This document shows, piece after piece, positions 2,363 to 17,970 of a stretch of DNA of 24,000 bases. The DNA is taken from the NCBI GenBank assembly GCA_052390275.1, contig JBQTHD010000019.1, positions 36 through 24,035 on the forward strand. The letters are read 5' to 3'. This DNA comes from Acidimicrobiales bacterium (GTDB taxonomy: Bacteria > Actinomycetota > Acidimicrobiia > Acidimicrobiales > AC-14). The first letter of the stretch is position 1, and each line of letters opens with the position of its first letter. Made by a program: the position numbers and the translations under genes. The notes under the pieces were generated by a model that worked only from the letters and a program-made list of their open reading frames with translations, was not told the origin of the DNA and did no database searches.

Positions 2363-3610
2363 CTAAACCAAGGAGATCTCGTGACAGAAGGGACGGCCGT
2401 CGAAGGAGTGAGGGGCCGCGCCCGTCACGACCGCCTCGGCCAGGACGACATCGGTCGGTTGGGCCCACAGTCCCTTGAGGGCCGAGGCCAGCGGGTCGGC
2501 GACGTCGAGCCCCAGGGAAAGGAACGAGTACCCGGCCCCCACCCCCCGGTTGGCCGCCCCAACCACCAGGGCCCGGGCCACGTCCATGCGGTCGTCGGAG
2601 ACACAAAGGTGGACCAGGCTGAGGTTGCGCAGGGCCTGTCCGGGAGCGGGCAGGCGGGTGGCCCTGACCAGGGGTGCGGCCAGGTTGAACACCCGGCGCA
2701 CCATCGCCAGGCGGGAGGAGTAACCCGTGACCCGGAATCGCTTGAACGAGTCGGTGTCCCAGACCCCGGCCAGGCCGACCAGCCGCCCGGACCGATCGCG
2801 AACCAGCAGATAGGACGGGTAGTCGAGACCGGGGGCCGCATTGATGAAGGCGTCGAGGCCAGCCTCGTCCAGGCATCCCCTGAGTTGGCGCGACGGTGCC
2901 CACCGCCGCCACAGATCGGCCATCTCCGCCAGGTCGGACGGCGCCGCCGGGGCGGTGGACAACTCACCAGGCAAACGTCGCCGCAGGAGCAGGGGGAGGC
3001 TGTAGGCCCGGATGGTGGTCAGAGGGTGGACCCGGGGAAGCCCTCGCGGGCCCTCGAAGCGCTTCTCCATCGCCTGATTGCCGCCCAGCACGGTCATGAC
3101 CACCAGCCCCGTCGGGCCGACCGCCTCCAGGCAACGCTTGGTCGCCCAGCGGCTGAGGGCATCGCCGACGCCTTGGCCCCGGAACTGCGGAAGTACCTTC
3201 AGGTCGCTCACATACATCGCCGAGGTTGGCCGCCCGTCGTGGTGAAGACGTCGCAGGGCGACGGCAATGCAGCCCACTACACGGTCGTCAATCTGAACTA
3301 CTCCGGCCCGCCACGGCTGCGTCCACCCCGGGGGGAGCGAATCGTCATAATCCGCTGCCACCTCGGACTCGAGGCGGTTGAGAACGAAGAAATCCGGCGC
3401 CCGATCCGACGCCAGGGCGATGTCGCCCTCCATGGGACACGCAACCGAAAGCGCCACCAGATCGGGATTGTCCGCCTCCTGGCCCTCTCGTACCTCCCAG
3501 GCGTCGTGGCCTTTGCCGTCGGGATTGAAATGGTCGTTGACCAGTCCTTCAACCGCGTCGTCGTCCGCCGGGTCCGCCTCGTCACCGGCGGATCCAGGGA
3601 CAATCGTCAT
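2363..3610 (-). CDS. two-lobed GNAT-family acyltransferase (415 aa)
   Basis: Acyl-CoA-binding motif VLPQFRGQGVGDALSRWATKRC in the N-terminal half, and a second GNAT-sized lobe in the C-terminal half. The start ATG overlaps the upstream gene's stop (ATGA at 3607-3610). Confidence 0.65.
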   Translation of the reverse strand: MTIVPGSAGDEADPADDDAVEGLVNDHFNPDGKGHDAWEVREGQEADNPDLVALSVACPMEGDIALASDRAPDFFVLNRLESEVAADYDDSLPPGWTQPWRAGVVQIDDRVVGCIAVALRRLHHDGRPTSAMYVSDLKVLPQFRGQGVGDALSRWATKRCLEAVGPTGLVVMTVLGGNQAMEKRFEGPRGLPRVHPLTTIRAYSLPLLLRRRLPGELSTAPAAPSDLAEMADLWRRWAPSRQLRGCLDEAGLDAFINAAPGLDYPSYLLVRDRSGRLVGLAGVWDTDSFKRFRVTGYSSRLAMVRRVFNLAAPLVRATRLPAPGQALRNLSLVHLCVSDDRMDVARALVVGAANRGVGAGYSFLSLGLDVADPLASALKGLWAQPTDVVLAEAVVTGAAPHSFDGRPFCHEISLV

Positions 3611-4764
3611 CCGGTCACTCGGCAGGCGGCCAAACGGCGCTGCACGGCGCTGCGGTCGGCCAGAATCAGCGTCTCCCCGCGAGGGCGATCCTCCTCGATC
3701 CGGCCGGCCCAGGCGGGAGGTATCTCCGTCCAGCCCAGGAAGTTGCGGATCACCAGAGGGGCTCCGGCGACAGCGGTACGCACCACCTGGGCGAGCAGTT
3801 CATGCAGTTGCACGGCAGTCAGCCACTCGCAGATGTTCGACAGGGCGAAGCCGTCAACGCTCTGGGCCGGCTGCGTGGCCAGGTAGGACGCCACGTCGGT
3901 GGCCACCAGCGTGAGTCGCCCCAGGGCGTCATCGCCCCCTGAGGAAGCCGACGCGTCACTGCCCCGCCTGTCCGGGTCGGGGCTCAGGTAGGGAGGGACC
4001 CCGCCGGACTCGGTCCCTGGGTACCGCCCGGTGAGCATGTGGTGAACGAAGTAGTTGGTGGCGATCGGAATGGCAGTGAGGGTGTGGTCGGCTGCGGCGC
4101 GAAAATGGCGTGCGAAGCTGGGGTTGTCGACGTGGGCGAAGAAGGCCGGGTCATAGGCCCGGCGAAGGACCGCCCGGTTGAGCAGCACCGCGAAGAAGGC
4201 CCTCCAGCGTGGGGTGTCCCACTCGGAAGCGAACAGGCGCTGCTGGGCCTCGAGAGTAGGGGCGGCCAGCATGCGTTCGATCCGGCCGGTCGGGTGAACG
4301 CCGGTCCTGAGAGCGGCAACCACCGTGGCGATGAATCTCTCGGTCACGCCGGAGCCCAGCACCCCCTTGTCGATGGCCCGGGAGTGGAGGCTCCAATAGG
4401 AACGGGCGGCGGGGGACAACCCGGGGGCCAACCGAGAAAAGGCCCGACGCCGTTGTTCGGGCCGGGCGCCATGGCCACCCAGAAAGGCCGTCGCCTCCTC
4501 GTGCCCCAGTTCGCCAACAGCCAGGGCCTTCAGTTCCACCAGGTGGAGTTGGGTGCGGTTCAGGTCGACCGCCACCACCTGTCCCTGGCCCCGATGCAGG
4601 AGGGACAAAGCGGTGCACCCTCCTGACGCCACCACCACCACCCTCCCGTCGAGGGCAGGCGCCAGGACGTCGAGTTCGAGGAGGGGATCCTCCCTGACCT
4701 GGGCGAAGAACAGCCGGTCGTCCTGGCCTCCTCCCGGATCGAGCCGACGGATCGGCCCGGTCAT
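3607..4764 (-). CDS. DUF3419 / BtaA-like protein (homolog of SAM:diacylglycerol 3-amino-3-carboxypropyl transferase)
   Basis: N-terminal FAQVREDPLLELDVL followed by a Rossmann-like VVVVASGGCTALSLL, the pattern I associate with DUF3419/BtaA. ATG at 4764. Confidence 0.7.
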   Translation of the reverse strand: MTGPIRRLDPGGGQDDRLFFAQVREDPLLELDVLAPALDGRVVVVASGGCTALSLLHRGQGQVVAVDLNRTQLHLVELKALAVGELGHEEATAFLGGHGARPEQRRRAFSRLAPGLSPAARSYWSLHSRAIDKGVLGSGVTERFIATVVAALRTGVHPTGRIERMLAAPTLEAQQRLFASEWDTPRWRAFFAVLLNRAVLRRAYDPAFFAHVDNPSFARHFRAAADHTLTAIPIATNYFVHHMLTGRYPGTESGGVPPYLSPDPDRRGSDASASSGGDDALGRLTLVATDVASYLATQPAQSVDGFALSNICEWLTAVQLHELLAQVVRTAVAGAPLVIRNFLGWTEIPPAWAGRIEEDRPRGETLILADRSAVQRRLAACRVTG

Positions 4765-4829: not shown

Positions 4830-6710
4830 ATGCAGTCGGGGCCCTTCGGTCGTACCATCGAACAGATGGTCAACCGGATGGACGTGCTGTCCGGATGGCT
4901 GACTGAGGGGAATCGGCCGGGCCGTGAACGCCCGGCTATCGAGCACGCTCAGAATCGCCAGCCTTCGCTCACCGGTTCGGGTCTGGTTGGTGCGGTCGAG
5001 GCCATTGACAACGACCTCGCCGCCCACGGTGCTGGCCCCGGCGACCGGGTGATCCTGTGGGACGAGCCCGGCCCCGCCTGGCTGGCCGCCTGGTTGGGAG
5101 CGCTTCGCCGGGGATGCGTGACAGTTCCCCTCGATTCACGCTTGACCGACGCCGAGGCTCGATCCCTGATCGACCGGTCCCAAGTGACCGCAGCGGTTAC
5201 CGGGCCGACGTTCGCCAGCCGCTGGGCGGCCGCGGGGCACCGACCGGCAATCTTGGCCTGGGAGCACGTATCTGCCGCCGCCGGTACCGGGCCCACCATC
5301 GAATCGAACCAAAGCGCCGAGCCCGGACAACTCCCGGAGTCCCCCGGGGCCCTGGAGGTTGCGGCGGCCGACCCGGTCACCTTGGTATGGACCTCAGGCA
5401 CCACGGGAGCGCCTCGCGGGGTGCTGCTCTCTGGCCTCAACCTGGCCTATGTCGTGGAACAGGTGGCGACGGGTCAGACCTTGAGCGCGTCCGACCGGTG
5501 GCTATCGGTTCTGCCCCCCAACCACCTCCTGGAGTTGGTGTGCGGGTTGCTGCCGGCCTTGTCCACCGGCGCCTCCACCATCGTGGCCGGGACACTCATG
5601 CCCGGTGACCTGGTCACCATGGTGGCCGAGAAGGCCATCACCCACATGGTGGTCGTCCCGGCCGTGCTGGCCGGACTGGCGAAATACCTGCAGGCGGGCT
5701 CCGCTGACGCCACGGCCGACGGTCGGTTGTCGAGCCTGAAGGCCGTCTACTGCGGCGGGGCGGCGCTGGACCCGGGTATCGCCCTGGCCATGGAACGGGT
5801 CGGCGTCGTCGTGTACCCGGGCTACGGATTGACCGAGACCAGCCCCGTGGTGGCCATGTGCGCCCCGGGGTCGATTCGATACGGGTCCGTCGGGCGGCCG
5901 TTGGCCGGTACCGAGGTCCGCCTCAGGGCGCCCGATCGCCAGGCAGCAGGGGCGCCCACAGATGACCCGGCGACGGCTGCAGAAGTGATCCGGGCCGAGG
6001 CGGACCATCCCGGCGAGGGGGAACTCTGCGTCCGCGGGCCTGGGGTGATGCTCGGCTACTGGAACGACCCCGAGGCCACCGCCAACGCCATCGATACCCA
6101 GGGATGGCTGGGAACGGGGGACCTGGCCACGATCGATCCCCAGGGTTTCATCACCATTACCGGACGGGTTTCGGTTCGGATCGTTCTCATCTCGGGGAAG
6201 AAGGTGGATCCCACCGAGGTTGAGAACGCGCTCACCGCCGATGGCACCTTTGCCGAGGCCTGCGTCCTTGCCTGGCCGCCGCCGGCCCGCCCCGGGGTCG
6301 GGGGCGGGGGCAGGGGCGGGGCGGCCAAGTCCGTCGAGGTGATCGGCATCGTTCGCCCCAGCGGTGATTACCTCCTCGCCGGCACCGGACCGGTATCTAG
6401 ACCGGTCCCTGGCACTTCGGTCGTTGCAACCGGGCCTGCTGAATGGGCAACCGAGGTTGCCACTGGCCTAGTGGGCCGGCTCAGCCCCTACAAGCGCCCC
6501 CATCGCATCCTGGTTCATCCCGGTCCTCTGCCGCGAACCGCCAAAGGCACCGTTCGGCGGGGCGAAGTCGCGGCCTGGCTGGCGCGGACTCTCGATCCCG
6601 CTGTCCAGGAACACCATGAGGCTGGAGACCCGACGACGACCCGAATTGACGACACCTCACGTCACCGGATTGTCGACACGGCAAGCGGATCGTCCGGGAC
6701 GGCTGGCTGA
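4830..6710 (+). CDS. adenylate-forming acyl ligase (fatty acyl-AMP/acyl-CoA/acyl-ACP ligase family)
   Basis: Motifs LVWTSGTTGAPRGVLLS, YPGYGLTETS, GWLGTGDLATID and C-terminal PRTAKGTVRR. Start uncertain (4830, 4866 or 4878). Its stop overlaps the next start (TGATG 6708-6712). Confidence 0.85.
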   Translation: MQSGPFGRTIEQMVNRMDVLSGWLTEGNRPGRERPAIEHAQNRQPSLTGSGLVGAVEAIDNDLAAHGAGPGDRVILWDEPGPAWLAAWLGALRRGCVTVPLDSRLTDAEARSLIDRSQVTAAVTGPTFASRWAAAGHRPAILAWEHVSAAAGTGPTIESNQSAEPGQLPESPGALEVAAADPVTLVWTSGTTGAPRGVLLSGLNLAYVVEQVATGQTLSASDRWLSVLPPNHLLELVCGLLPALSTGASTIVAGTLMPGDLVTMVAEKAITHMVVVPAVLAGLAKYLQAGSADATADGRLSSLKAVYCGGAALDPGIALAMERVGVVVYPGYGLTETSPVVAMCAPGSIRYGSVGRPLAGTEVRLRAPDRQAAGAPTDDPATAAEVIRAEADHPGEGELCVRGPGVMLGYWNDPEATANAIDTQGWLGTGDLATIDPQGFITITGRVSVRIVLISGKKVDPTEVENALTADGTFAEACVLAWPPPARPGVGGGGRGGAAKSVEVIGIVRPSGDYLLAGTGPVSRPVPGTSVVATGPAEWATEVATGLVGRLSPYKRPHRILVHPGPLPRTAKGTVRRGEVAAWLARTLDPAVQEHHEAGDPTTTRIDDTSRHRIVDTASGSSGTAG

Positions 6711-7711
6711 TGGTCGCCGTATATCGGGATCCGGCCTACCTCGATGGGATCGGATGGTGTCTGGGAAGCCAGCGCCAAACGGTTCCTGAGGCCCTGGCCG
6801 CCGGTCGGGTCCGGGCCAGCGCGCAGGCGTTCGCGTCGGCCGGCTTCGTCAGCCATCACGTCTGCAGCGACGGTGAAACGGCCTACGACCTGGCCCTGGC
6901 CGCCGCCACCCAGGCCGGGGAAAAGGCGATGACGGGCGTGGGGGCCATCATCTATTCCACGTGCCTGCCGACCAACGCCAACCTGGCCGGGCCCGCTGAG
7001 TTCGCCTCCAGCCGGGACGTGAAGCACCTCATGGACTTCCCCGCCAGCCGCCTGCAGCGAGACCTGGATCTCCCCGATGCGTTCGTGATCGGGCTTACCC
7101 AACAGGCCTGTACGGCCATGTTGGGGTCACTTCGCCTGGGCACCGCCCTGCTCGGCTCCGAAGCCGGCTTGGATGCGATCCTGTGCGTCACCGCCGACCG
7201 GTTCCCCCCGGGGGCCCTTTACGAACAGGCCTACAACCTGGTCTCCGACGGGGCCGCTGGCTGTGTGGTCTCCCGGAGCCCCGGTCGGTACCGGATCCTT
7301 GCCGCCCACCATCTGACCCGGGGTGGCCTGGTTCACGCCGGCGACGACGAGACCATTGGCGCCTTTTTCGCCGCCACCGGGCAGTTGATGACAGAACTGA
7401 TGGAGGGCTGCGGACTCCAGCCTGCCCAGGTTCACCGGGTGGTGACGCAGAACACCGACCCACGGGCGTGGCGAATCTTGGGGCCCACGCTGGGATTCGG
7501 TCCGTCACAGATCTGGGCGCCCACTCTGGCCGAGGTCGGTCACGTGATCAGCGCTGACAGCCTCATCAACCTGGCCGCACTTGACGACGTCGACCGTGCC
7601 GGGGGAGGGGCCCAACCGGGCGATCTGATCATCCTGGTCATGGCCGGTTACGGCCTGAATACCCAAGCCGTCCTGCTCGAGCGGGTGGCCGCCGCCGGTC
7701 CGGCGGCCTGA
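6710..7711 (+). CDS. KAS III (FabH)-like enzyme with a non-canonical catalytic triad
   Basis: Thiolase-fold pattern: GLTQQACTAMLGSL (Cys nucleophile context), VSDGAAGCVV, and C-terminal VMAGYGLNTQAVLLE. The FabH HQAN motif reads VTQNT and the GNTSAAS motif reads GHVISAD (alignment by eye). Confidence 0.75.
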   Translation: MVAVYRDPAYLDGIGWCLGSQRQTVPEALAAGRVRASAQAFASAGFVSHHVCSDGETAYDLALAAATQAGEKAMTGVGAIIYSTCLPTNANLAGPAEFASSRDVKHLMDFPASRLQRDLDLPDAFVIGLTQQACTAMLGSLRLGTALLGSEAGLDAILCVTADRFPPGALYEQAYNLVSDGAAGCVVSRSPGRYRILAAHHLTRGGLVHAGDDETIGAFFAATGQLMTELMEGCGLQPAQVHRVVTQNTDPRAWRILGPTLGFGPSQIWAPTLAEVGHVISADSLINLAALDDVDRAGGGAQPGDLIILVMAGYGLNTQAVLLERVAAAGPAA

Positions 7712-8604
7712 TGAGCACCCCTTCCGGCCGGGCAGGCCAACCTTTACCGGAGTTGGCCCGACGCCTCGCCGCGGCTTCGGTCCGCAGCCGCAGGGATCCC
7801 GAGACCGCCATCGACTGGCCGGCCTCGATCGATCCCGCCGCCTGGTTCATGCGCCCGGAGTGGGTCTCGGCCTACGACACCCCGTGGTGGGAGGCCCTCG
7901 ACACCCCGTCCCGCCAGCGCCTCAGCTTCTACGAGGCCGTCAACTTCTTCAGCCTCAACATTCACGGCGAGCGCCAACTCATGGCCGGCCTGGCACGGCG
8001 TCTGTATGCGCCGGGCCTGGAGGGGGTGAGCCCGTACATCCATCACTTCCTGGCCGAGGAGAACAACCACAGCCTGTGGTTCGCCACCTTCTGCACCCGT
8101 TACGCCGGCGCCATCTATCCCGACCGCGCTGTCACCTTTCCCAGCCATGCGGCTCCCGGTCAGGACGACGTTTGCTTCTTCGCCCGCGTGGTGATCTTCG
8201 AGGAGATCGTCGACCGCTACAACCAGGCCATGGCCGCGGACGACCGGGTAGAACCGGTGGCCCGCCAGATCAACGCCAACCACCATGCCGAAGAGATCCG
8301 CCACCTCGCCTTCGGGCGCCGCCTGGCACTCGAGTTGTGGGCGCAGTGGGCGCCGACCTGGAGTGACGAGGTCCGCGCTGAGGTGAGGACGCACCTCGAC
8401 GGCTTTGTCGAGGACACCTGGCGATCGTTCTACCGGGCCGAGGCCTACCGGGATGCCGGCTTGGCCGAGCCATGGGCCCTTGCACGGCGGATCTGGTCAT
8501 CCCCGGCCGCTGTGGCCCATCGGGAACGGGTGAGCGCCGAAGCCCTGGCTCCGCTGGTATCGGCCGGAGTCCTGACCCTGCCCGGACCCCCGGCCCCAGG
8601 CTGA
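7711..8604 (+). CDS. AurF-type di-iron carboxylate oxygenase
   Basis: Four-helix di-iron ligand pattern: NIHGERQ (E), LAEENNHSLWF (ExxH), VIFEEIVDRY (E), HHAEEIRHLAFG (H-x3-E-x2-H, the extra His typical of AurF/CmlI-type N-oxygenases). TGATG overlaps at both ends. Confidence 0.65.
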   Translation: MSTPSGRAGQPLPELARRLAAASVRSRRDPETAIDWPASIDPAAWFMRPEWVSAYDTPWWEALDTPSRQRLSFYEAVNFFSLNIHGERQLMAGLARRLYAPGLEGVSPYIHHFLAEENNHSLWFATFCTRYAGAIYPDRAVTFPSHAAPGQDDVCFFARVVIFEEIVDRYNQAMAADDRVEPVARQINANHHAEEIRHLAFGRRLALELWAQWAPTWSDEVRAEVRTHLDGFVEDTWRSFYRAEAYRDAGLAEPWALARRIWSSPAAVAHRERVSAEALAPLVSAGVLTLPGPPAPG

Positions 8605-8873
8605 TGACCTCGGCCGCATCCGCCGAAACCATCCGCCAGGCCCTGATCGGATGGCTGGTCAAACACAACCCGGGCCTTGAACCGGCCGGGGTGTCCGATG
8701 ACTCCCGCCTGATCGAGAACCGCTGGCTCACGTCGGTTCAGATCCTGGACCTCCTCGGCCTGCTGGAGGAGTTGCGCGAGGAGGCCATCCCACTCGACGC
8801 GCTGCGCCCCGGGTCCTTCGCCACCATCGGAGTGATCATCGACACCTTCTTCGGACCCGCGGCTCGATCATGA
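8604..8873 (+). CDS. carrier protein 1 (ACP/PCP-like, 89 aa)
   Basis: Size and helix pattern of a carrier protein. Candidate phosphopantetheine Ser in RWLTSVQILDLLGLLEE. The start ATG at 8604 overlaps the upstream stop, and its own stop overlaps the next start (ATGA 8870-8873). Confidence 0.65.
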   Translation: MTSAASAETIRQALIGWLVKHNPGLEPAGVSDDSRLIENRWLTSVQILDLLGLLEELREEAIPLDALRPGSFATIGVIIDTFFGPAARS

Positions 8874-9751
8874 ACCTGCCGGCCGGTCAACCCGGGACAC
8901 CCGACCCCCTGGTGGCAGCCGGGCCGGGGGGGGTGGCCGTCTTGACCCCGGACCTGGTGGCATTCCTCGATGGCCTCGATGCCCACCTGGTGGCACTGGC
9001 TCGCCGATGGTGGGCGGAGGAGTTCCGGTTCGGGCCGTTGCTGGCGGCCGACGTGGTGGATCGCATGGACTGGCTGACCGGGTTTCCCCAGTTGGCCACC
9101 TTCCCCGCCACCCTCGACGCCGCACCCGACAACCTCGACGCCTTCTGCGCCGGGCCGCCCCGATCCGACGACGGGACCATCCGACTCACCTCCCTCGCCC
9201 CATTGGCCCAGGTCCTGGCCCCGGCTGCCTGCTATCACCTTTACGACCACCTTGCCGGCGGAAACTTCGACACCCCGCAATGGTTCACCGTTCGGGCGCC
9301 CTGCTTTCGGCGGGAGGAGGACTATGTGCCCCTGGAGCGCCAGTGGGCCTTCAACATGCGCGAGATCGTGTGCGTCGGTCCGCCCGGGCCAACTTCGGAC
9401 TTCGTTGACGAGGCCACCCTGATGATCTCCGACCTGGCCCGCCATCTCGGACTCGACGTCGACTGGAACCGGGCGACTGACCCGTTCTTTAGACCCACCC
9501 GTCACCCGGGTTACCTGCTGCAGTTGGTGGACCCCACCAAACACGAGTTGCTGTTTCAGAACCGTCTGGCCCTGGCCTCGACCAACCTGCACCACGACCA
9601 CTTCGGACGGGCCTTCGCTCTGACCTCCGACGGAAAGCCGGCCCGAACAGCCTGCGTGGCCTTCGGCCTGGAAAGGTGGGCGGCGGCCATGATGGCCACC
9701 CACGGCTCTCCGGATCGTTGGCCGGTGCCGCCGGCCGCCGCCGGTCCGTGA
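8870..9751 (+). CDS. truncated class II aminoacyl-tRNA-synthetase-like protein; probable amino acid:[carrier protein] ligase
   Basis: 293 aa, catalytic-core size only. SerRS-like motif 2 RAPCFRREE...RQWAFNMREIVCVG, and motif 3-like TACVAFGLERWAAAM. Cys/Glu/Cys (AACYH, REIVC, TACVAF) sit where a Zn site would lie in methanogen-type SerRS homologs. No tRNA-binding arm. Coupled to an upstream carrier protein. Confidence 0.6.
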   Translation: MNLPAGQPGTPDPLVAAGPGGVAVLTPDLVAFLDGLDAHLVALARRWWAEEFRFGPLLAADVVDRMDWLTGFPQLATFPATLDAAPDNLDAFCAGPPRSDDGTIRLTSLAPLAQVLAPAACYHLYDHLAGGNFDTPQWFTVRAPCFRREEDYVPLERQWAFNMREIVCVGPPGPTSDFVDEATLMISDLARHLGLDVDWNRATDPFFRPTRHPGYLLQLVDPTKHELLFQNRLALASTNLHHDHFGRAFALTSDGKPARTACVAFGLERWAAAMMATHGSPDRWPVPPAAAGP

Positions 9752-10941
9752 CTTATCGCGTACGCCCGGACCCCGACAGCGTCCGCTCCGGATCAAGGGA
9801 CCGCAAGGTTGACCCCGACCCGCTCGGCGGTGCCGGAGCGGAGACCGACGCTCGGCTGGCTGGGCATCGCGAGCCCTGGGACGATCGGGTCGTACTGGTG
9901 ACGGGGGCATCGGGATACCTGGGCGCGCTGGTGGCAGCCAGGTACCGGGCCGCGGGGGCGACCGTCATCGCCCATGGCCGGCGGCCGGTGCCGATACCAC
10001 AGGGTTCGGGGCAATGGGTGTCCGTGGTGGGAGACCTGACCAGCGACGACGCTTTCGCCGGACTCAAGCCATCCTGGCGGCGCCAGATCACCGCCGTAGT
10101 CCACGCAGCAGCCCTGACCCGCTTCGACGCCACCGCCGAGGAGGCCGACGCCGTCAACGTCGAAGGGACGCGCCGAGTGTTGGACCTGGCCTTGGCGTGT
10201 GAGAACCTGACCGCCTTCGGGCACTTGAGCACCGTGTACGCCTCGGGGCTGCAGGGCGGCACCATCGCCGAGGAACTGAGGCCGGCTACCGCCGGGTTCG
10301 CCAACCACTACGAGCGGTCCAAGTCCGAGTCCGAGCATCTGGTGGCTCTGGCCGGCCCGCCGAGGTGGCGCATCCTGCGGGCCGCCACCGTTATCGCCGA
10401 CGGCGAGGACGGAACCGTCAGCCAGTACAACGCTTTCCACGAGACCCTCAAACTGTGGTTCGGCGGACTGCTCCCGCTCATCCCCGGCCGGGCGGCCAGC
10501 CCGCTCTACCTGACCACCGGCAACTTCACGGCGGAAGCCATAGTCGCCCTGATGGATCATCCGGCGGCCGGCGGGCAGGTGTATCACCTGACCCCCACCA
10601 CCTCGGCCTGCCTCACGCTGGCCCAGGCCGTCGCCCTGGTGTCGGGGACCTTCGGAGAGAGCGCCGGATACCGAAGGCGGGGAGTCCTGACCCCGCCGCT
10701 GGTGGATTGGGCGAGCTTCGAACTCCTCGGCGCCGGGGTGGAGGCCTTCGGCGGGGCCCTGGTCCGGCGGTCCCTGGCCGCCCTCACGCCCTTCGCCCGC
10801 CAACTGGGAGTGGAGAAGGACCTTGTCAACCAGGCCTTTTGCGCGCTGCACCCGCGACAGCATCCGGACCTCGGCCCCCTGGTCGTGGCGGTGTGCCGTC
10901 ATCTGATGGCAACGTCGTGGGGACGCCGTGAGGCCGGATGA
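9748..10941 (+). CDS. thioester-reductase-type SDR (NAD(P)H-dependent, terminal-reductase-like)
   Basis: VLVTGASGYLG Rossmann motif, VVHAAALTRFD, NVEGTRRVLDLA, LSTVYASG, YERSKSESE (YxxxK). I place the start at the GTG at 9748 overlapping the upstream stop (GTGA). The track start at 9676 would overlap the previous gene by 76 nt. Confidence 0.7.
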   Translation: MTYRVRPDPDSVRSGSRDRKVDPDPLGGAGAETDARLAGHREPWDDRVVLVTGASGYLGALVAARYRAAGATVIAHGRRPVPIPQGSGQWVSVVGDLTSDDAFAGLKPSWRRQITAVVHAAALTRFDATAEEADAVNVEGTRRVLDLALACENLTAFGHLSTVYASGLQGGTIAEELRPATAGFANHYERSKSESEHLVALAGPPRWRILRAATVIADGEDGTVSQYNAFHETLKLWFGGLLPLIPGRAASPLYLTTGNFTAEAIVALMDHPAAGGQVYHLTPTTSACLTLAQAVALVSGTFGESAGYRRRGVLTPPLVDWASFELLGAGVEAFGGALVRRSLAALTPFARQLGVEKDLVNQAFCALHPRQHPDLGPLVVAVCRHLMATSWGRREAG

Positions 10942-11641
10942 ACTCATCGAGGTGGCCGAGTGGGCGTCGGCCGCCCTGGGGTGGGAGGTCCGTCTGGCCA
11001 TGACCACAGACGGCCTGGCCCCCGGGAACATGACGGCGGGGGAGCGGCGGCAGTTTCAGGTATTCGACTCCCCGCAGCGCCGGGCGGACTGGTCCCGGGG
11101 CAGGGCTGCGCTGAAGAACCTTCTGGGCGGGGCCGATACCTCGACGGTGACCTTCCCCCACCCCTGGCTGTCGATCTCGCACTCCGGGTCGGTGGCCGTG
11201 GCCGCCGCTCTTCCCGGGCTGGGGGACGCCGCCTGCGGGCCTGGACTGGGAGTGGACTATGAGGCTTCGCGCTCCGTCGACGACCGGGCGATCCGGTTCT
11301 TCCTCCACCCCCATGAGGTTCCGGAGGCGGGTGCGAGCCGTTCCCCCGGCGGCGATGCCACGTTCCGTCCACTCGGATTCCCGGGGGCCGGTTGCCCGCC
11401 GAGGTCGACCGACCCGCCGGCGGGGTGCCTGCTGGCCGCATGGACTGCCAAAGAGGCTCTCTTCAAAGCGTCCGGTCCCGCCAACCAGGGACGGACTCTC
11501 CTCGATGTCCACCTCACCGGCCCGGCTGCGCCCATGGGGCGGGCGATCGGGCCTGCCGGCTCGGATATGGCCTACGTGAGCGCCGTGGTGTCTTCCGGAT
11601 GCCTGTCGGTGGCCGTGGGCCGGAACCGGCCGGTCCGGTGA
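10928..11641 (+). CDS. Sfp-type 4'-phosphopantetheinyl transferase
   Basis: LSISHSGSVAVAA, GVDYE and AWTAKEALFKA motifs. The GTG start overlaps the upstream gene by 14 nt, and internal starts are possible. Confidence 0.8.
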   Translation: MRPDELIEVAEWASAALGWEVRLAMTTDGLAPGNMTAGERRQFQVFDSPQRRADWSRGRAALKNLLGGADTSTVTFPHPWLSISHSGSVAVAAALPGLGDAACGPGLGVDYEASRSVDDRAIRFFLHPHEVPEAGASRSPGGDATFRPLGFPGAGCPPRSTDPPAGCLLAAWTAKEALFKASGPANQGRTLLDVHLTGPAAPMGRAIGPAGSDMAYVSAVVSSGCLSVAVGRNRPVR

Positions 11642-12378
11642 AGCGGGGCAGCACAGAACGGGCGGCCGGGCCGGTCGGCGACGACGAACACTGGCTGCTC
11701 AGCTACTACCGGACGTCGGAGATCAACGGGTCCCTGTTCTTCGGCCGGCTGGCCCGCAGCATGCGCCCGGGTCCCATCCAGCACGACCTGACCCGGCACT
11801 TTGCCGATGAGGCCCAACACGCCTGGTACTGGACAGACTGCCTTGCAAAGCTGGATCTTCGACCCATCAAGCTCTCCGACGCCTACCAGGACCAGTACCT
11901 GGAGGCGGCCGGCCTACCCATGAACCTGATGGAGGTTCTGGCCATCACCCTGGTCTTCGAGCGACGGGTGGTGAACCAGTACACCCGTCACCTGGCCGCA
12001 CCCACCATCCGCCCCGAGGTGGCCACCACCATTGCCACCATCATGGCCGACGAGCGCTGGCACGTCCGCTGGGTCCGAGACGCCCTGGAACGGATGGAGG
12101 AGCGCTACGGCGCCTCCACGGTGGCCGAGACCCTCCATCGCTACAAGGAGGCCGACCGGGAGGTCTACGCCCACACCCTGGCCGAGCACGAGGCCCGACT
12201 GGCCTTCCTGTTCGAGCGTCAAAAAGGGGTTCCGTCGCCGGTTCAGCCGGCCGAGATGAGGATCGAGGATCGGGTCGGGACCATGGGCGACATCGATCCA
12301 CATCGGTCAGGGCAACCCGACCCGCCAAGCGCGCAGTCAACCAGCCCGCGATCACTACGCAACGAGGAGCGGACATGA
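11638..12378 (+). CDS. ferritin-like di-iron carboxylate protein (246 aa), unrelated in sequence to 7711-8604
   Basis: E / ExxH / E / ExxH pattern: SEINGSLFF, ADEAQHAWYW, LVFERRVV, MADERWHVRW. I place the start at the GTG at 11638 (GTGA overlap with the PPTase stop). The upstream part of the track ORF (11392-) lies inside the PPTase gene. Confidence 0.7.
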   Translation: MKRGSTERAAGPVGDDEHWLLSYYRTSEINGSLFFGRLARSMRPGPIQHDLTRHFADEAQHAWYWTDCLAKLDLRPIKLSDAYQDQYLEAAGLPMNLMEVLAITLVFERRVVNQYTRHLAAPTIRPEVATTIATIMADERWHVRWVRDALERMEERYGASTVAETLHRYKEADREVYAHTLAEHEARLAFLFERQKGVPSPVQPAEMRIEDRVGTMGDIDPHRSGQPDPPSAQSTSPRSLRNEERT

Positions 12379-12611
12379 ACCCCACCCCCGAGGACGTCCG
12401 GCGGCACATGGCCAAACTCCTTGAGCGGCCCGAGGCCAAGGTGGCCACAGCCGCCGTCCTGACCGACCTGGTAGCCGACAGCTTCCGCTTGGTGGAACTG
12501 GCCATCGAACTCCAGGACGACTTCGACGTGGTCCTGACCCAGGCCGATCTCTCCGTGATCAACACCGTGGGCGACCTGGCCCAGTTGGTGGCCTCTAGGG
12601 CGCGGGGCTAG
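12375..12611 (+). CDS. carrier protein 2 (ACP, 78 aa)
   Basis: LTDLVADSFRLVELAIELQDDFDV, a classic DS(F/L) phosphopantetheine site followed by an acidic helix. ATGA overlap at 12375-12378, with GAGGAG at 12364-12369. Confidence 0.8.
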   Translation: MNPTPEDVRRHMAKLLERPEAKVATAAVLTDLVADSFRLVELAIELQDDFDVVLTQADLSVINTVGDLAQLVASRARG

Positions 12612-13316: not shown

Positions 13317-14729
13317 ATGCCATTGGTCCACCGGGTCCTGTATCCCCGGGCCATCGTGTCCCTGGAGGACCATGTGGGCCGGGGTGGAGGCAAAGGCCTG
13401 GCCGCCGCCCGGGACATGACGCCCGATCAGATCATCGAGGCGGTGTTGGCCTCGGGCCTGCGAGGCCGAGGGGGAGCGGGCTTTCCCACCGGCCGCAAGT
13501 GGCGCACGGTGGCCGACAACGCGGCCGGGGTCGGCCCCCCGACGGTGGTTGTCAACGCAGCGGAGGGAGAGCCGGGAACCCTCAAGGACCGCACCATCCT
13601 GCGCCGCAACCCCTTTGGAGTGGTGGAGGGCGCGTTGGTGGCAGCCCGGGCCACCGGGGCTGACCTGATCGTCTTCGCCACCAAGGAGGCGTTCTCCGGC
13701 GAGGTCGACCGGCTTCGGGAGGCGGTGGAACAGGCCGAGGACGCCGGTTGGTCCGAAGGCGTGGCCATGACCGTCTTTGAGGGCCCCGACGAGTACCTCT
13801 ACGGCGAGGAGAGCGCGCTGCTGGAAACCATCAGCGGACGCTGGCCCTTCCCCCGGGTGGTGCCGACCTTTCGCCGGGGGGTCACCGGGGGCGAGGGTCC
13901 CACCCCGCCGGCGCTGGTCAACAACACCGAGACCCTGGCCAACGTTGCCCGGATCGTGGCCCGAGGATCGGCCTGGTTCCGCACCATGGGTACCGAGGAG
14001 TCCCCGGGCACCGCCGTCTGCACCGTCACCGGCGACACCCACCATCACGGCGTCGGCGAGGTCCAGATGGGCACACCCTTGGGGGAGGTGATCGAGTTGA
14101 TCGGCGGCGGGCCCAGGGAGGGTCGCAAGATCAAGGCGGTCATGTCCGGGGTGGCCAACGCCATCATGGGCCCCGAAGCCCTCGACGCCCCGGTCAGCTA
14201 CGAGGGGTTGCGGGGCGCGGGCAGCGGCATCGGGTCCGCCGGGTTCATCGTCTTCGACGAAACAGCCGACATGGTGGCGGTCGCGGCGGGGGTATCGAGG
14301 TTCTTGGCGGTGGAGTCCTGCGGCCAGTGCGCGCCCTGCAAGATCGACGGGGCCAGCCTGGCCCAGACGCTGTTGAAGATTGCGGCGTCGCAGGCCATCG
14401 ACCACGACCGCCAGTTGCTCGACCGCAAACTCTCCACGGTGGCCGACCGGGCCCGCTGCTTCTTGGCCACCCAGCAGCAGGTGATGATCACCAGCATCCT
14501 GTCCAGGTTCCCCGAAGAGTTCGAGGGCCGAATGGACCGCAGCCGCGAACCGGTGTCCTCCGCCCTGATCTCTGAACTGATCGACATCCGCAACGGCAAA
14601 GCCGTTCTCGACGAACGCCATCGCCGCAAGCAGCCCGACTGGACCTACAACAAGCGGGACTCGGGCACCGTCCCGGTTGAGCGCTACGCCAGCCTTACCC
14701 CCCCCTGGGGCCTCGGCGCCCTCGCCTGA
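13317..14729 (+). CDS. stand-alone NuoF-like NADH-binding FMN/4Fe-4S flavoprotein
   Basis: GLRGRGGAGFPTGRKW, NAAEGEPGT, the cluster motif ESCGQCAPCKIDG, and a later C in RARCFL. No nuoE/nuoG neighbours are present. Confidence 0.85.
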   Translation: MPLVHRVLYPRAIVSLEDHVGRGGGKGLAAARDMTPDQIIEAVLASGLRGRGGAGFPTGRKWRTVADNAAGVGPPTVVVNAAEGEPGTLKDRTILRRNPFGVVEGALVAARATGADLIVFATKEAFSGEVDRLREAVEQAEDAGWSEGVAMTVFEGPDEYLYGEESALLETISGRWPFPRVVPTFRRGVTGGEGPTPPALVNNTETLANVARIVARGSAWFRTMGTEESPGTAVCTVTGDTHHHGVGEVQMGTPLGEVIELIGGGPREGRKIKAVMSGVANAIMGPEALDAPVSYEGLRGAGSGIGSAGFIVFDETADMVAVAAGVSRFLAVESCGQCAPCKIDGASLAQTLLKIAASQAIDHDRQLLDRKLSTVADRARCFLATQQQVMITSILSRFPEEFEGRMDRSREPVSSALISELIDIRNGKAVLDERHRRKQPDWTYNKRDSGTVPVERYASLTPPWGLGALA

Positions 14730-15201: not shown

Positions 15202-16260
15202 CTACGGAGCCGCCGGCTGAGCCGTACGGGCCGGGCCGGTCGACGCTTCGTCCAGGTCCCCGCGCTGGGCCATCCACAGCAACACCACCAGGGCGGGAAT
15301 GAACAGGACGGCCCCGATGGCCAGGCTGATGAGCATGGCCACCAGCGCTGCCCGGCTGCCGGCGGCGGCTTCGATGCTCAACTGCCCAACCAGCATCTCC
15401 GGGTACTGCCCGGCCGCCCATCCCCACAGCACGGCACCCACGGCGACGGCCGCGCTCCATCGGCTGAGCCGGTAGCGACGGGCCGCCAGGAGCCAGAAGG
15501 AGGTTCCCGCCCCCGCCGCCGACACAACCAGCAGCGGCAGAGCCCGACCCGAAAGACCGTCGAAGAGTCGGGGGGCGTCGGAGGCGAGCACGGCGATTCC
15601 GACCAGGGCCACCACCCCCGATAACACCCCCGTGGCCATGGCCCGGCGCCGGAACGCCTCCGCCAGAAGGGTCTCCTGGCGACGGGCGGCCTCGGCGGTC
15701 AGGTAGGTGGCCGCCAGATAGGCGCAGACCAGCACGGCCATCGTCCCCCCCAACATCGAAGTCGGGTTCCACCAGGAGCCGATGGGATCGATGGGAGCGG
15801 CCGCCGCTCCCCGTTGGTAGGCGGTCACCCGCCCGGAGGCCACCGCTCCCACCACCGTCCCGAGGAAGAACGGAGTCAGGACAGACGAGAGGGCAAAGGC
15901 CACGCCGTAGGTCCGCTTGGTGGCGATCGGCACCACCGCCTTGCGAAAGGCAAACGCCGAGCCCCTGGCGATGATGCCCACAGCCGCCAACGTGAGGGGG
16001 ATGTACAACGTTCCCATGACCGCCGCGAAGGCGGAGGGAAACCCGCTCCACAAGATGACCAGGGCGAAGATCAGCCAGACGTGGTTGGCCTCCCACACGG
16101 GCCCGATGGACTTCTCGATGAGGGCCCGGGCCGGCGCCCCCGAGCGGGTGCGGCCCGAGAGCAGGTCCCAGATTCCGGCTCCGAAGTCAGCCCCGCCGAA
16201 GACGGCGTAGAGCGTGCCTCCGGCGAACATCACCACCAGCACCCCCTCGGCCAGGGTCAT
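15202..16260 (-). CDS. cydB: cytochrome bd oxidase subunit II
   Basis: I place the start at the ATG at 16260 (MTLAEGVLVVMFAGGTLYAVFGGADFGAGIWDLL, the typical CydB N-terminus). Polytopic membrane protein located downstream of cydA. Confidence 0.9.
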   Translation of the reverse strand: MTLAEGVLVVMFAGGTLYAVFGGADFGAGIWDLLSGRTRSGAPARALIEKSIGPVWEANHVWLIFALVILWSGFPSAFAAVMGTLYIPLTLAAVGIIARGSAFAFRKAVVPIATKRTYGVAFALSSVLTPFFLGTVVGAVASGRVTAYQRGAAAAPIDPIGSWWNPTSMLGGTMAVLVCAYLAATYLTAEAARRQETLLAEAFRRRAMATGVLSGVVALVGIAVLASDAPRLFDGLSGRALPLLVVSAAGAGTSFWLLAARRYRLSRWSAAVAVGAVLWGWAAGQYPEMLVGQLSIEAAAGSRAALVAMLISLAIGAVLFIPALVVLLWMAQRGDLDEASTGPARTAQPAAP

Positions 16261-16288
16261 TCGTGGGCCCCGTTCGCCCCGGCGAGAA

Positions 16289-17785
16289 TCATTTGAGGTC
16301 CGCCTCAGGGGCCATCGAAGCCATTTGGACCTCCGCCTCAGGTCGGGCGGCCGGATCTGTCGACGACAATGGCGATGACGCGGGGGGTCCGCCGGATTCC
16401 TCCGGGCCGATGGGGGCAGGTTCGGACTCGGGTGCCCCGGAGGCACCGCCAGGTCGGATCATCCGCCGCAGAACGGTGATCACCGCCACCGTCAGGGCGA
16501 CGTAGACCACGATGAGCCCGTAGTAGCCAAACCGGATCCCCGGGGCCCGGGTCACCGCCTCGTCCACCCGCATCACTTCGTAGACGATCCAGGGTTGGCG
16601 GCCGACCTCGGTGGCCACCCATCCCGCCTCCATCGCCACCGCGGCCAGCGGGCCGGCTGCGGCCGCCGCCCACAGGAAGACCCGGGCAGCCGGCAGGTCC
16701 CGCCGCCGCCACCACGACCATCCCAACCAGACACCCAACCCCAGGAGAAAGAAGCCAATGGCCACCATCACCTGGAAGGCCGCCCGAACGATCGGCACCG
16801 GCGGGCGCTCGTCGGCGGGGACCTGGTCCAACCCGGCCACCACCGCGTCAACGTCACCGTGGGCCAACCACGACAGCCCGCCGGGGATCTCCAGGCCGTA
16901 GCGAACCTCGCCGTCGATGTAGAGACCGCCAATGGTCAGAGGAGCGCGAGGTTGGGTCCGCAGCACACCCTCCAGAGCGGCCAGCTTCACCGGCTGATTT
17001 TCGGCCAGGAAGCGGGCGGCCCAGTCGCCGACCACGATCTGGGCCGGGGTCAGGGCGGCGGCAAAGGCGAAGGGAAGAAGGAATCCAATCCGGTTGTACC
17101 GGTCTCGCCGACCCCGCAGCAGGCCCCAGGCGTAGATCGATGCGACCAGGAACCCGGCCACCATCAGCGCAGCCAGCACCATGTGGGTGGTCTGCACCGG
17201 AGTGGCCGGATTGAACATGGCCGCCACCGGATCGACGTTTCGGACCTGGCCGGTTTCGCGATAGTGGTCGATGTCGAAGCCGGTCGGCTGGTTCATCCAG
17301 GCGTTGGCCGTGACCACGAACCAGGCCGAGGCAATCCCGGCGATGGGCACGGGCAGGCCCACCAGCAGATGCTGGCGAGGGGTCAGGCGGCGGCGGCCGT
17401 AGAGGTAGATCCCCAGGAAGATGGCCTCCAGGAAGAAGGCCACACCCTCGATGGCAAAGGGAAGTCCCCAGACGTCGCCGAAGGTACCCATGAGGTCAGG
17501 CCAGAGGATTCCAAGCTCAAAAGAGAGAATTGTGCCGGACACGGCGCCGACGGCAAAGAGCACGGCGAAGGCCTTGCTCCACCGGTAGGCCAACTCGGCG
17601 AACACCGGGTCCCCGGTGCGGATACCCCGCCATTGGGCCAGGAGGATAAGGATGGGGAAACCCACCCCGAGGCTGGCAATGACGATGTGCCAACCCAGAG
17701 AAAGCGCCATCTGCTGGCGGGCGGCCCACAGATTGGCCTCAAGGACCGAGTCGCTCGTCGCCAGGAGGTGGGCCAGGCCCATCAT
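16289..17785 (-). CDS. cydA: cytochrome bd oxidase subunit I
   Basis: AGWVATEVGRQPWIVY signature, a multi-TM profile, and an N-terminal WAARQQMALSLGWH resembling the usual CydA start. ATG at 17785 (the track start at 17806 is TTG). Carries a Pro/Ser/Glu-rich C-terminal tail. Confidence 0.9.
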   Translation of the reverse strand: MMGLAHLLATSDSVLEANLWAARQQMALSLGWHIVIASLGVGFPILILLAQWRGIRTGDPVFAELAYRWSKAFAVLFAVGAVSGTILSFELGILWPDLMGTFGDVWGLPFAIEGVAFFLEAIFLGIYLYGRRRLTPRQHLLVGLPVPIAGIASAWFVVTANAWMNQPTGFDIDHYRETGQVRNVDPVAAMFNPATPVQTTHMVLAALMVAGFLVASIYAWGLLRGRRDRYNRIGFLLPFAFAAALTPAQIVVGDWAARFLAENQPVKLAALEGVLRTQPRAPLTIGGLYIDGEVRYGLEIPGGLSWLAHGDVDAVVAGLDQVPADERPPVPIVRAAFQVMVAIGFFLLGLGVWLGWSWWRRRDLPAARVFLWAAAAAGPLAAVAMEAGWVATEVGRQPWIVYEVMRVDEAVTRAPGIRFGYYGLIVVYVALTVAVITVLRRMIRPGGASGAPESEPAPIGPEESGGPPASSPLSSTDPAARPEAEVQMASMAPEADLK

Positions 17786-17970
17786 GGACCGGTCCACCGG
17801 CGGCAAATGCCGTCAAGCCCGCCTCGAACCGCCGTTTTCGCCCGGGCCGCACCATCACCACCAGGCCCAGGCATCGACAACGAAGCAGTGGGGGAGAACC
17901 CCGCGACCCCCCATCCGAGACTGGCCAAATACTCCATGGCGAACCTCCCGGGCGGACCCTAACACCCCTC

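Follow-up and report, generated by a model that had tools for sequence, protein, structure and literature searches.

Amino acid:[carrier protein] ligases (aa:CP ligases) have been known since 2010. The closest of them to the gene studied here is Bll0957 of Bradyrhizobium japonicum (glycine:[carrier protein] ligase 1; PDB 3MEY, 3MF1, 3PZC, 4H2S), reportedly described by Mocibob et al. in 2010 and 2013. Such enzymes attach glycine or alanine to a carrier protein from their own operon and leave tRNA uncharged (PMC5370406, PMC9437257), and for the canonical, Bll0957-type enzymes both role and product have only been conjectured (PMC9437257, PMC2922099, PMC5370406). Here we analysed a stretch of 24,000 nucleotides (nt) from an Acidimicrobiales bacterium (GenBank assembly GCA_052390275.1, contig JBQTHD010000019.1, positions 36 to 24,035 of the forward strand; hereafter the window), with a G+C content of about 68-70%. 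In this window, the gene of an 89-amino-acid (aa) carrier protein, CP1, is coupled to that of a 293-aa ligase resembling the catalytic core of a class II aminoacyl-tRNA synthetase (aaRS). We propose with high confidence, from its sequence, that the 293-aa protein would be an ATP- and zinc-dependent aa:CP ligase acting on CP1 without tRNA.

The canonical enzymes have a neighbourhood of their own. We observed in Rhizobium the succession acyl carrier protein (ACP), acyl-CoA dehydrogenase family protein, ligase, DUF1839 and glycosidase, and the ACP/acyl-CoA dehydrogenase/DUF1839 (Atu2574-like) neighbourhood was described by Aravind and co-workers (PMC2922099). None of these canonical neighbours was detected by Pfam scans of the window. 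Other described systems associate a carrier-tethered amino acid with a diiron oxygenase. In PvfB/PvfC and HamC/HamD, which lead to pyrazine N-oxides, valdiazen and fragin, an AurF-family oxygenase acts on the tethered amino acid before release by a thioester reductase (PMC11659414). For the enteromycin carboxamide, the literature describes oxidation of carrier-bound glycine to a nitronate by a diiron oxygenase, the nitronate being then O-methylated or, in cryptic cassettes, denitrified (PMC9967187, PMC12154687, PMC12183544).

The ligase and its predicted active site

CP1 (positions 8604..8873, + strand) and the ligase (8870..9751, + strand) overlap: the ligase ATG (8870-8872) runs into the CP1 TGA (8871-8873), forming an ATGA at 8870-8873. 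The original prediction, made from the letters of the window, had coupled the 89-aa carrier to the 293-aa class II core in this way, and both the coordinates and the codon overlap proved right. Pfam gave a sub-threshold class II core match only for the ligase. Among NCBIfam models, it matched NF005479, 'amino acid-[acyl-carrier-protein] ligase', at E 1e-40, and the methanogen-type seryl-tRNA synthetase (SerRS) model at 4e-10, the latter over model positions 253-498 of 518 only. The best match among PDB sequences was Bll0957 (E 5.7e-35, ligase residues 19-286), followed by the M. kandleri type-2 SerRS (7e-7).

An AlphaFold2 model of the ligase, built on 40 family members (pLDDT 88.5, pTM 0.86), was compared with the PDB using Foldseek. 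The top ten matches were chains of Bll0957, with E-values around 1e-24 (best 6e-25), TM-scores of 0.74-0.80 (0.79 when normalised on Bll0957) and 32-34% identity. Methanogen-type SerRS followed, then other class IIa synthetases. The TM-score normalised on SerRS was only 0.44 because the SerRS tRNA-binding domain has no counterpart in the ligase. No competing ligase fold was found among the hidden Markov model (HMM), PDB-sequence and structure matches. The original prediction had proposed this comparison by HMM and AlphaFold/Foldseek, and had named best matches outside the class II aaRS as the outcome that would speak against it; with Bll0957 first and methanogen-type SerRS next, this did not occur.

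Motif 2 (consensus fRxE; here FRRE, residues 146-149) and motif 3 (consensus GxGx[DE]R; here GLER, 266-269), which define the class II core, align with those of Bll0957. In the HMMER alignment, ligase C121, E165 and C262 pair with C151, E196 and C299 of the Bll0957 chain, that is with Cys131, Glu176 and Cys279 once the 20-residue tag is subtracted. We take these three residues to be the zinc ligands of Bll0957. No variation was seen at C121, R147, E149, E165, C262 or R269 among 40 family members, and conservation was still at least 95% among 83. By alignment, the predicted Cys/Glu/Cys zinc site (C121/E165/C262) is present and the active site looks catalytically intact. The strings first picked out in the protein, APCFRREE (C145-E150), RQWAFNMREIVCVG (R157-G170), AACYH (C121), TACVAF (C262) and GLERW (R269), are all there, and what had been read from them holds: motifs 2 and 3 are SerRS-like, align with Bll0957 and are invariant in the family; the Cys/Glu/Cys residues fall on the aligned zinc triad of Bll0957 and are likewise invariant; and there is no room for a tRNA-binding domain, residues 19-286 of 293 being taken by the Bll0957-like core. 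The same residues bear on whether the protein could be a catalytically inactive scaffold or regulatory paralogue, as HisZ is for HisRS. Nothing specific speaks for this apart from the low scores to curated models, and with ATP-binding, motif 2, motif 3 and zinc residues all invariant across phyla it is hardly credible.

The relation of the core to methanogen-type SerRS, and the annotation of relatives as 'seryl-tRNA synthetase' in several sources, could also suggest a minimal, atypical SerRS or another tRNA-charging paralogue supplying aminoacyl-tRNA to a pathway, as VlmL does for valanimycin. However, a protein of 293 aa is a catalytic core only, too short for an N-terminal or anticodon tRNA-binding domain and far from the full SerRS architecture of about 500 aa. 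Methanogen-type SerRS (M. kandleri 3W3S, M. barkeri 2CIM) share the zinc-dependent class II core and rank second among the matches, but carry about 200 additional N-terminal tRNA-binding residues and are 17-23% identical to the window ligase. A dedicated carrier protein and a phosphopantetheinyl transferase are present, and the Pfam scan of the genes around the pair revealed no aminoacyl-tRNA-dependent transferase of the Fem, MprF or cyclodipeptide synthase (CDPS) kind. In addition, tRNA charging is absent from the closest relative that has been characterised (PMC5370406). Taken together, this makes a tRNA-charging role extremely improbable.

The likeness to Bll0957 extends to fold, size, 34% identity over the whole core, motifs 2 and 3 and the Cys/Glu/Cys residues in register, a carrier-protein gene in the same operon and the lack of a tRNA-binding domain. 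Most of the defining features of an aa:CP ligase that can be checked in silico are found in the pair. Judging from alignments and model, the ligase is a real homologue of Bll0957, of the aa:CP ligase kind. It differs from Bll0957 by its place in a separate clade of the neighbour-joining (NJ) tree, by a sub-equivalog score and by a changed segment, and the window carrier is of PltL type, with T/R/S-S in place of the usual D-S. The changed segment, residues 204-226 (DPFFRPxxxPxYLxQxVDPTKxE), is family-specific and conserved, and departs from Bll0957 exactly where the engineered 4H2W variant departs from wild type. This region presumably belongs to the carrier-protein interface, an assumption of ours that we use as a lead only.

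Many ligase relatives are longer, with 380-420 aa and an extra N-terminal region of about 100 aa (P0122, P0130, P0177, P0182 and others). One such long relative lies on a Bacillus mycoides plasmid and adjoins an ACP (L088:6710-7894).

CP1 as the predicted carrier partner

Ligase relatives were found in at least 574 species genomes (scan with one genome per species), and the loci of the best 80 of them were compared. Of the 77 loci in which both genes could be located, 76 have CP1 immediately upstream of the ligase, 56 of them with the 4-nt overlap. The pairing of CP1 and ligase is not due to chance. To define the CP1 family, the gene immediately upstream of the ligase was extracted from the 77 related loci. 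All 78 sequences of the family share Ser44 and Glu55. Ser44 stands in the motif R-x-[LIV]-[TRS]-S-[LVI]-[QH] (R-x-L-T-S-V-Q in the window), preceded by Thr, Arg or Ser and, in 78 sequences, never by Asp. The unusual serine context WLTSVQ to which the original prediction had drawn attention is thus real and a trait of the whole family, all 78 members having the Ser.

A CP1 profile made from 40 family sequences and run against the PDB matched PltL (3.6e-10), PigG (2.3e-7) and, more weakly, the Bll0957-cognate carrier 4h2s_C (0.08), the family Ser being in register with the phosphopantetheine serine of the PltL NSM motif. The carrier identity of CP1 was recognised because a family profile was used, Pfam on CP1 alone giving nothing. 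At this profile level CP1 is a carrier protein, and Ser44 is its predicted phosphopantetheine site. In the PltF/PltL and PigI/PigG systems, as in CP1, the residue preceding the aligned carrier serine is not Asp, but proline is loaded there by ANL-superfamily adenylation enzymes and not by an aaRS-like ligase. Stand-alone aminoacyl carriers therefore offer a precedent for the atypical context, which may be the reason for the dedicated Sfp-type 4'-phosphopantetheinyl transferase (PPTase) of the operon (237 aa; 10928..11641, + strand; Pfam ACPS 1.3e-6). A weak CP1 match to the NCBIfam model 'ACP for OlsHI' raised a role in ornithine lipids, which was rejected since the OlsHI route, which needs a GH3-like enzyme, is unrelated to the one considered here.

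The window encodes a second carrier, CP2, an AcpP-like acyl carrier protein that has 78 aa and contains a DSF motif (12375..12611, + strand; NCBIfam acyl carrier protein models, 1.4e-9). One may therefore ask if the physiological acceptor of the ligase could be CP2, coenzyme A (CoA), another thiol, or a lipid or sugar amine, CP1 carrying something else. Characterised aa:CP ligases do aminoacylate free CoA and cysteine in vitro (PMC5370406), and an amide-forming end use was proposed for the canonical system by Aravind and co-workers (PMC2922099). Against this stand the 76/77 adjacency with overlapping codons and the resemblance of CP1 to aminoacyl carriers (PltL, PigG, 4h2s_C), that of CP2 being to the fatty-acid carrier AcpP. 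CP1 is also kept where CP2 is absent: because eight full cassettes without CP2 retain CP1, CP1 rather than CP2 would be the partner of the ligase. An acceptor other than CP1 is in our opinion very unlikely. The interpretation of the pair as an aa:CP ligase and its partner carrier is supported by the computational tests, at the level of sequence and structure model.

Conservation of the cassette

The best 80 loci come from Acidimicrobiia, Mycobacteriales, Streptomyces, Micromonosporaceae, cyanobacteria, Melainabacteria, Nitrospirota, Myxococcota, Bdellovibrionota, Acidobacteriota, Planctomycetota and Proteobacteria, which amounts to about ten phyla. An exhaustive search of 1.84 billion cluster representatives retrieved 945 ligase-family clusters at E <= 1e-10, and the whole family comprises about 1,000 clusters at 50% identity. 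The window ligase is itself identical to a hypothetical protein of an Acidimicrobiales metagenome-assembled genome, and hundreds of homologues are on record. In a NJ tree (no bootstrap), the cassette ligases form one clade whose sister is a small clade from Tistrella and Streptomyces plasmids, the canonical Bll0957/Rhizobium enzymes forming a separate clade. The ligase had initially been viewed as an actinobacterial copy of an alpha-proteobacterial family; we find instead that it belongs to a large clade of its own, with members in about ten phyla.

In the window, the pair belongs to a run of genes on the + strand. These are, in order, an AMP-binding fatty-acid ligase (626 aa; 4830..6710; Pfam AMP-binding 2.3e-64; NCBIfam long-chain-fatty-acid-CoA ligase 1.1e-68, below cut-off), a β-ketoacyl-ACP synthase III (KAS III, FabH)-like enzyme (333 aa; 6710..7711; Pfam ACP_syn_III_C/ACP_syn_III), a ferritin-like diiron oxygenase (297 aa; 7711..8604; Pfam PF11583, AurF family, E 2.8e-38), CP1, the ligase, a thioester-reductase-like short-chain dehydrogenase/reductase (SDR; 9748..10941; Pfam NAD_binding_4 8.8e-23), the PPTase, a small ferritin-like diiron protein (11638..12378; weak Pfam matches to DUF455, Rubrerythrin and Ferritin_2) and CP2. 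From the AMP-binding ligase to CP2, successive stop and start codons overlap by 1, 1, 1, 4, 4, 14, 4 and 4 nt. The AMP-binding ligase stop thus overlaps the KAS III-like start by 1 nt, and the oxygenase stop and CP1 start share 1 nt, oxygenase, CP1 and ligase being contiguous with overlapping codons. GTG starts are proposed from sequence for the SDR (9748) and the small ferritin-like gene; as GTGA, they overlap the ligase stop and the PPTase stop, respectively. CP2 is joined to the small ferritin-like gene by an ATGA overlap. Divergently from this cassette run, on the - strand, lie a putative accessory tailoring gene, DUF3419 (BtaA-like, S-adenosylmethionine (SAM)-dependent; 3607..4764; Pfam PF11899 6.2e-51) and, downstream of it, the gene of a 415-aa GNAT-family acyltransferase (2363..3610; Pfam Acetyltransf_1 6.1e-7), for which only generic acetyltransferase matches were obtained.

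Cassette genes were counted in the 51 loci with enough flanking DNA. Cassettes have eight to eleven genes, with a near-constant core made of the diiron oxygenase (50/51), CP1, the KAS III-like enzyme and the SDR (48/51 each) together with the ligase. The small ferritin-like protein and CP2 are each found in 40/51 and the PPTase in 28/51. The AMP-binding ligase of the window type occurs in 24/51 and a fatty acyl-AMP ligase (FAAL)-type ligase in 37/51. An ICMT-like membrane methyltransferase is encoded in 29/51 cassettes (for example L019:5308-5868), and DUF3419 stands beside the cassette in 16/51 loci, together with GNAT in 13. The ICMT-like methyltransferase and DUF3419 are mutually exclusive (0 shared cassettes among 51), which suggests that ICMT-like and DUF3419, the latter usually with GNAT, are alternative SAM-dependent tailoring enzymes of one intermediate. 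Genes for FAAL, MMPL and ABC/HlyD exporters are found near cassettes in other genomes.

In an Acidimicrobiia-type locus (L001:7964-9754) the KAS III-like enzyme and the oxygenase are fused in one 596-aa product, and therefore both enzymes should work together; this cassette lies among housekeeping genes. In the window, the AMP-binding ligase has a C-terminus about 60-125 aa longer than its orthologues in L002 (501 aa) and L019 (566 aa), and no domain match was obtained with this extension.

No description of the cassette was found in the searchable literature. The pair departs from the described aa:CP ligases by its distinct and widespread clade, its score below the curated equivalog level, its PltL-type carrier, its lock to a diiron oxygenase and the conserved cassette. 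The glycine-nitronate work introduced above is reportedly that of He & Ryan (Nat Chem, 2021). That article may already report aaRS-like loaders in cryptic cassettes, which is the main risk to novelty. The expectation that an actinobacterial copy in a tailoring operon would give the family a pathway context is accordingly borne out as far as the conserved cassette goes, and part of that context, the glycine-nitronate part, may already be in the literature. A large, distinct aa:CP ligase clade locked in one translationally coupled cassette would provide a concrete, reconstitutable pathway for this enzyme family, one where an aaRS core stands in for an NRPS (non-ribosomal peptide synthetase) adenylation (A) domain. 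It also points to an orphan, probably lipid-like metabolite in Acidimicrobiia, Streptomyces, Mycobacteriales, cyanobacteria, Nitrospirota, myxobacteria and others. Cultured strains are among the carriers of the cassette, namely Kineosporia mesophila JCM 16902 (L021), Catellatospora spp. (L031, L054, L055), Streptomyces silvisoli (L049), Nocardia stercoris (L068) and Mycobacterium simulans (L035), which makes the prediction directly testable.

The diiron oxygenase and the glycine-nitronate link

Sister trios of oxygenase, carrier protein and ligase, accompanied by a PF03060 'nitronate monooxygenase', were found in Tistrella pTM2, Streptomyces NBC_01431 and Agrobacterium vitis F2/5. Their oxygenases share 40%, 38% and 32% identity, respectively, with that of the window. 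We regard these compact cassettes as probable examples of the denitrifying glycine-nitronate cassettes already published, with an aaRS-like enzyme as the loader in this case. A further relative of the oxygenase occurs in an Azospirillum cluster encoding an A domain, an ACP, a SAM methyltransferase, an oxygenase of the same subfamily, an NRPS and a polyketide synthase (PKS). The Azospirillum ACP is CP1-like (E 2.9e-7 to CP1) and the layout matches the literature description of enteromycin-class clusters. The specificity code of its A domain, read by eye, is roughly DLFSLCLIAK. This differs from what we take to be the canonical glycine code, so that the code, read as a stand-in for the oxygenase substrate, is uninformative.

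Gene order in the compact cassettes was inspected at L090 (A. vitis F2/5 plasmid, 6654-11347), L085 (7772-12082) and L087 (5924-11542), which all encode carrier, oxygenase, 'nitronate monooxygenase', ligase and PPTase. A TauE/SafE exporter is added in A. vitis and a methyltransferase in Tistrella. A plasmid of Streptomyces sp. NBC_00335 (L084, 738-13062) offers a third context for the trio: oxygenase, carrier protein, ligase and PPTase lie inside a type II PKS/fatty acid synthase-like cluster with two ACPs, a ketosynthase (KS), a chain length factor (CLF), a second KS, FabI and a ketoreductase, without the reductase.

What the window shares with the enteromycin and denitrifying cassettes is a carrier-tethered small amino acid, as predicted here, and a ferritin-like diiron oxygenase, 32-40% identical to the cassette and cluster oxygenases. 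It differs from them by the addition of a KAS III-like enzyme, a reductase, a second diiron protein, a second ACP and a fatty-acid ligase, and by the mode of loading, which is by an NRPS A domain in the inspected clusters and by an aaRS-like ligase in the window. PvfB and HamC can be likened to the window oxygenase through Pfam family membership. In PvfC and HamD, however, loading, carrier and reductase functions reside in one NRPS (A-T-R) with valine as substrate, whereas the window has three separate proteins and an aaRS core in place of the A domain.

Within the window oxygenase, candidate iron ligands are E75 or E87 (first carboxylate), E117-x2-H120, E164, H191 and E195-x2-H198. E87 is at least 95% conserved in the cassette clade; in a wider alignment of 31 sequences E75, not E87, is invariant. 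The ligands of the small ferritin-like protein would be E13, E43-x2-H46, E93 and E124-x2-H127 (numbering from 11683), the ExxH pairs being conserved.

Proposed pathway and alternatives

In the pathway that we favour, and consider likely as a whole, the ligase would load CP1, the oxygenase would act on the loaded carrier and the product would be lipid-like. CP1 would be primed by the PPTase of the same operon; the ligase would adenylate a small amino acid and transfer it onto the phosphopantetheine thiol of holo-CP1. CP1 is taken as the partner because of the ATGA overlap, the adjacency in 76/77 loci, the PltL/PigG-like profile and the operon PPTase. With medium confidence, and by analogy, the amino acid is most likely glycine, and aminoacyl-S-CP1 would be the substrate of the upstream diiron oxygenase, which would oxidise the tethered amino group to give, as in the related systems, a nitroacetyl or nitronate product. 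That the oxygenase acts on aminoacyl-S-CP1, that glycine is probable and that the ligase replaces an NRPS A domain are proposed because of the sister and enteromycin-like contexts and of the HamC/PvfB precedent.

Our confidence in the downstream steps, also drawn by analogy (KAS III-like enzyme, SDR, DUF3419/GNAT or ICMT-like methyltransferase), is low. One possibility is that the KAS III-like enzyme attaches to the CP1-bound intermediate a fatty acyl group that the AMP-binding ligase has activated and CP2 carries. This KAS III-like enzyme keeps the nucleophile Cys134 and has Gln247 for FabH His244 and His278 for FabH Asn274, both invariant. Standard decarboxylative condensation is disfavoured because of these two replacements; the residues would suit acyl transfer, or else a Claisen-type reaction without decarboxylation at an acidic carbon, for example that of a nitroacetyl thioester. 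The SDR, which has a Rossmann GxxGxxG motif and a conserved Y144-x3-K148 pair (numbering from residue 9880) and which matches TIGR01746 Thioester-redct at 4.2e-22, below cut-off, may release the product reductively. DUF3419 and GNAT here, and the ICMT-like methyltransferase in other phyla, may then tailor a lipid-like product. The fatty-acid ligase, the AcpP-like CP2, the exporters and the tailoring genes suggest, from their family assignments, an amino-acid-derived lipid.

Several observations weigh against this pathway. The match of the ligase to NF005479 reaches 139.7 bits, under the 357-bit equivalog cut-off, and the ligase is only 34% identical to Bll0957; because of this identity and of a score far below the cut-off, the specificity of Bll0957 is not transferable to it, and the function of the clade is a proposal drawn from sequence, structure model and context. 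The Pfam scan of window CP1 gave no match at the PF00550 gathering score, and within the CP1 family PP-binding gave weak matches in 2/40 members only. No glycine riboswitch or T-box was matched by Rfam in the window or in seven other loci, nor was a nitronate monooxygenase or a class I nitronate O-methyltransferase detected in the window by Pfam and NCBIfam scans. PF03060 also takes in FabK-like reductases. Run against the PDB, the oxygenase family profile failed to retrieve AurF or CmlI and gave weak matches to ribonucleotide reductase R2 (RNR-R2) and R2lox only, so that the N-oxygenase assignment comes from gene context and not from sequence; the chemistry could be N-oxygenation, beta-hydroxylation or desaturation. 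Finally, N-, O- and C-acylation would fit the KAS III-like enzyme equally well.

The last points lead to an alternative in which ligase and CP1 act as proposed, with the oxygenase hydroxylating or desaturating carbon, in the amino acid side chain or a fatty acyl chain, en route to an N-acyl amino aldehyde or alcohol lipid. The KAS III-like enzyme would then be an N-acyltransferase, the SDR a releasing reductase, and DUF3419 would attach a head group of the homoserine type, like BtaA in betaine lipids. Besides the failure of the oxygenase profile to reach AurF or CmlI, this would fit the membership of DUF3419 in the BtaA family, the MMPL-type exporters near cassettes, the L001 cassette lying among housekeeping genes, and the presence of the acyltransferases CerJ and ChlB3 among the matches of the KAS III-like profile, although FabH is the best of these (4.5e-18) and CerJ, ChlB3 and DpsC score much lower. 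This ranking settles on neither an acyltransferase nor a condensing enzyme. On the other hand, the closest outside contexts of the oxygenase subfamily are the nitronate-monooxygenase trios and the enteromycin-like A domain/ACP/methyltransferase/oxygenase/NRPS/PKS cluster, and the oxygenase gene is always tied to CP1, not to CP2. We hold carbon oxidation to be possible but, on balance, doubtful.

Returning to oxidation of the amino group, a more specific outcome can be imagined. The nitronate carbanion on CP1 could be used by the FabH-like enzyme, which lacks the decarboxylation residues, to form a C-C bond with a fatty acyl group or aldehyde, followed by reductive release. This would constitute a pyridoxal phosphate (PLP)-independent route to 2-nitro/2-amino-3-oxo(hydroxy) sphingoid-base-like lipids in at least ten phyla. 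We mention it as a speculative and rather unlikely extension.

Genes flanking the cassette

A 438-aa open reading frame (ORF) on the - strand (489-1805) gave a weak, sub-threshold match to indoleamine 2,3-dioxygenase (E 1.5e-5). It was excluded as a cassette member since it is not kept beside the cassette in L002. Further away, a 616-aa ORF (19315-21165) carries a ThyX (Thy1) domain confined to residues 409-565, with no Pfam match in its long N-terminal part. Downstream of the cassette are a stand-alone NuoF-like flavoprotein with flavin mononucleotide (FMN) and 4Fe-4S domains (13317-14729) and, on the - strand, a cytochrome bd oxidase CydAB pair (15202-17806). With these NuoF-like and CydAB genes, which are ordinary housekeeping genes, the cassette boundary is reached.

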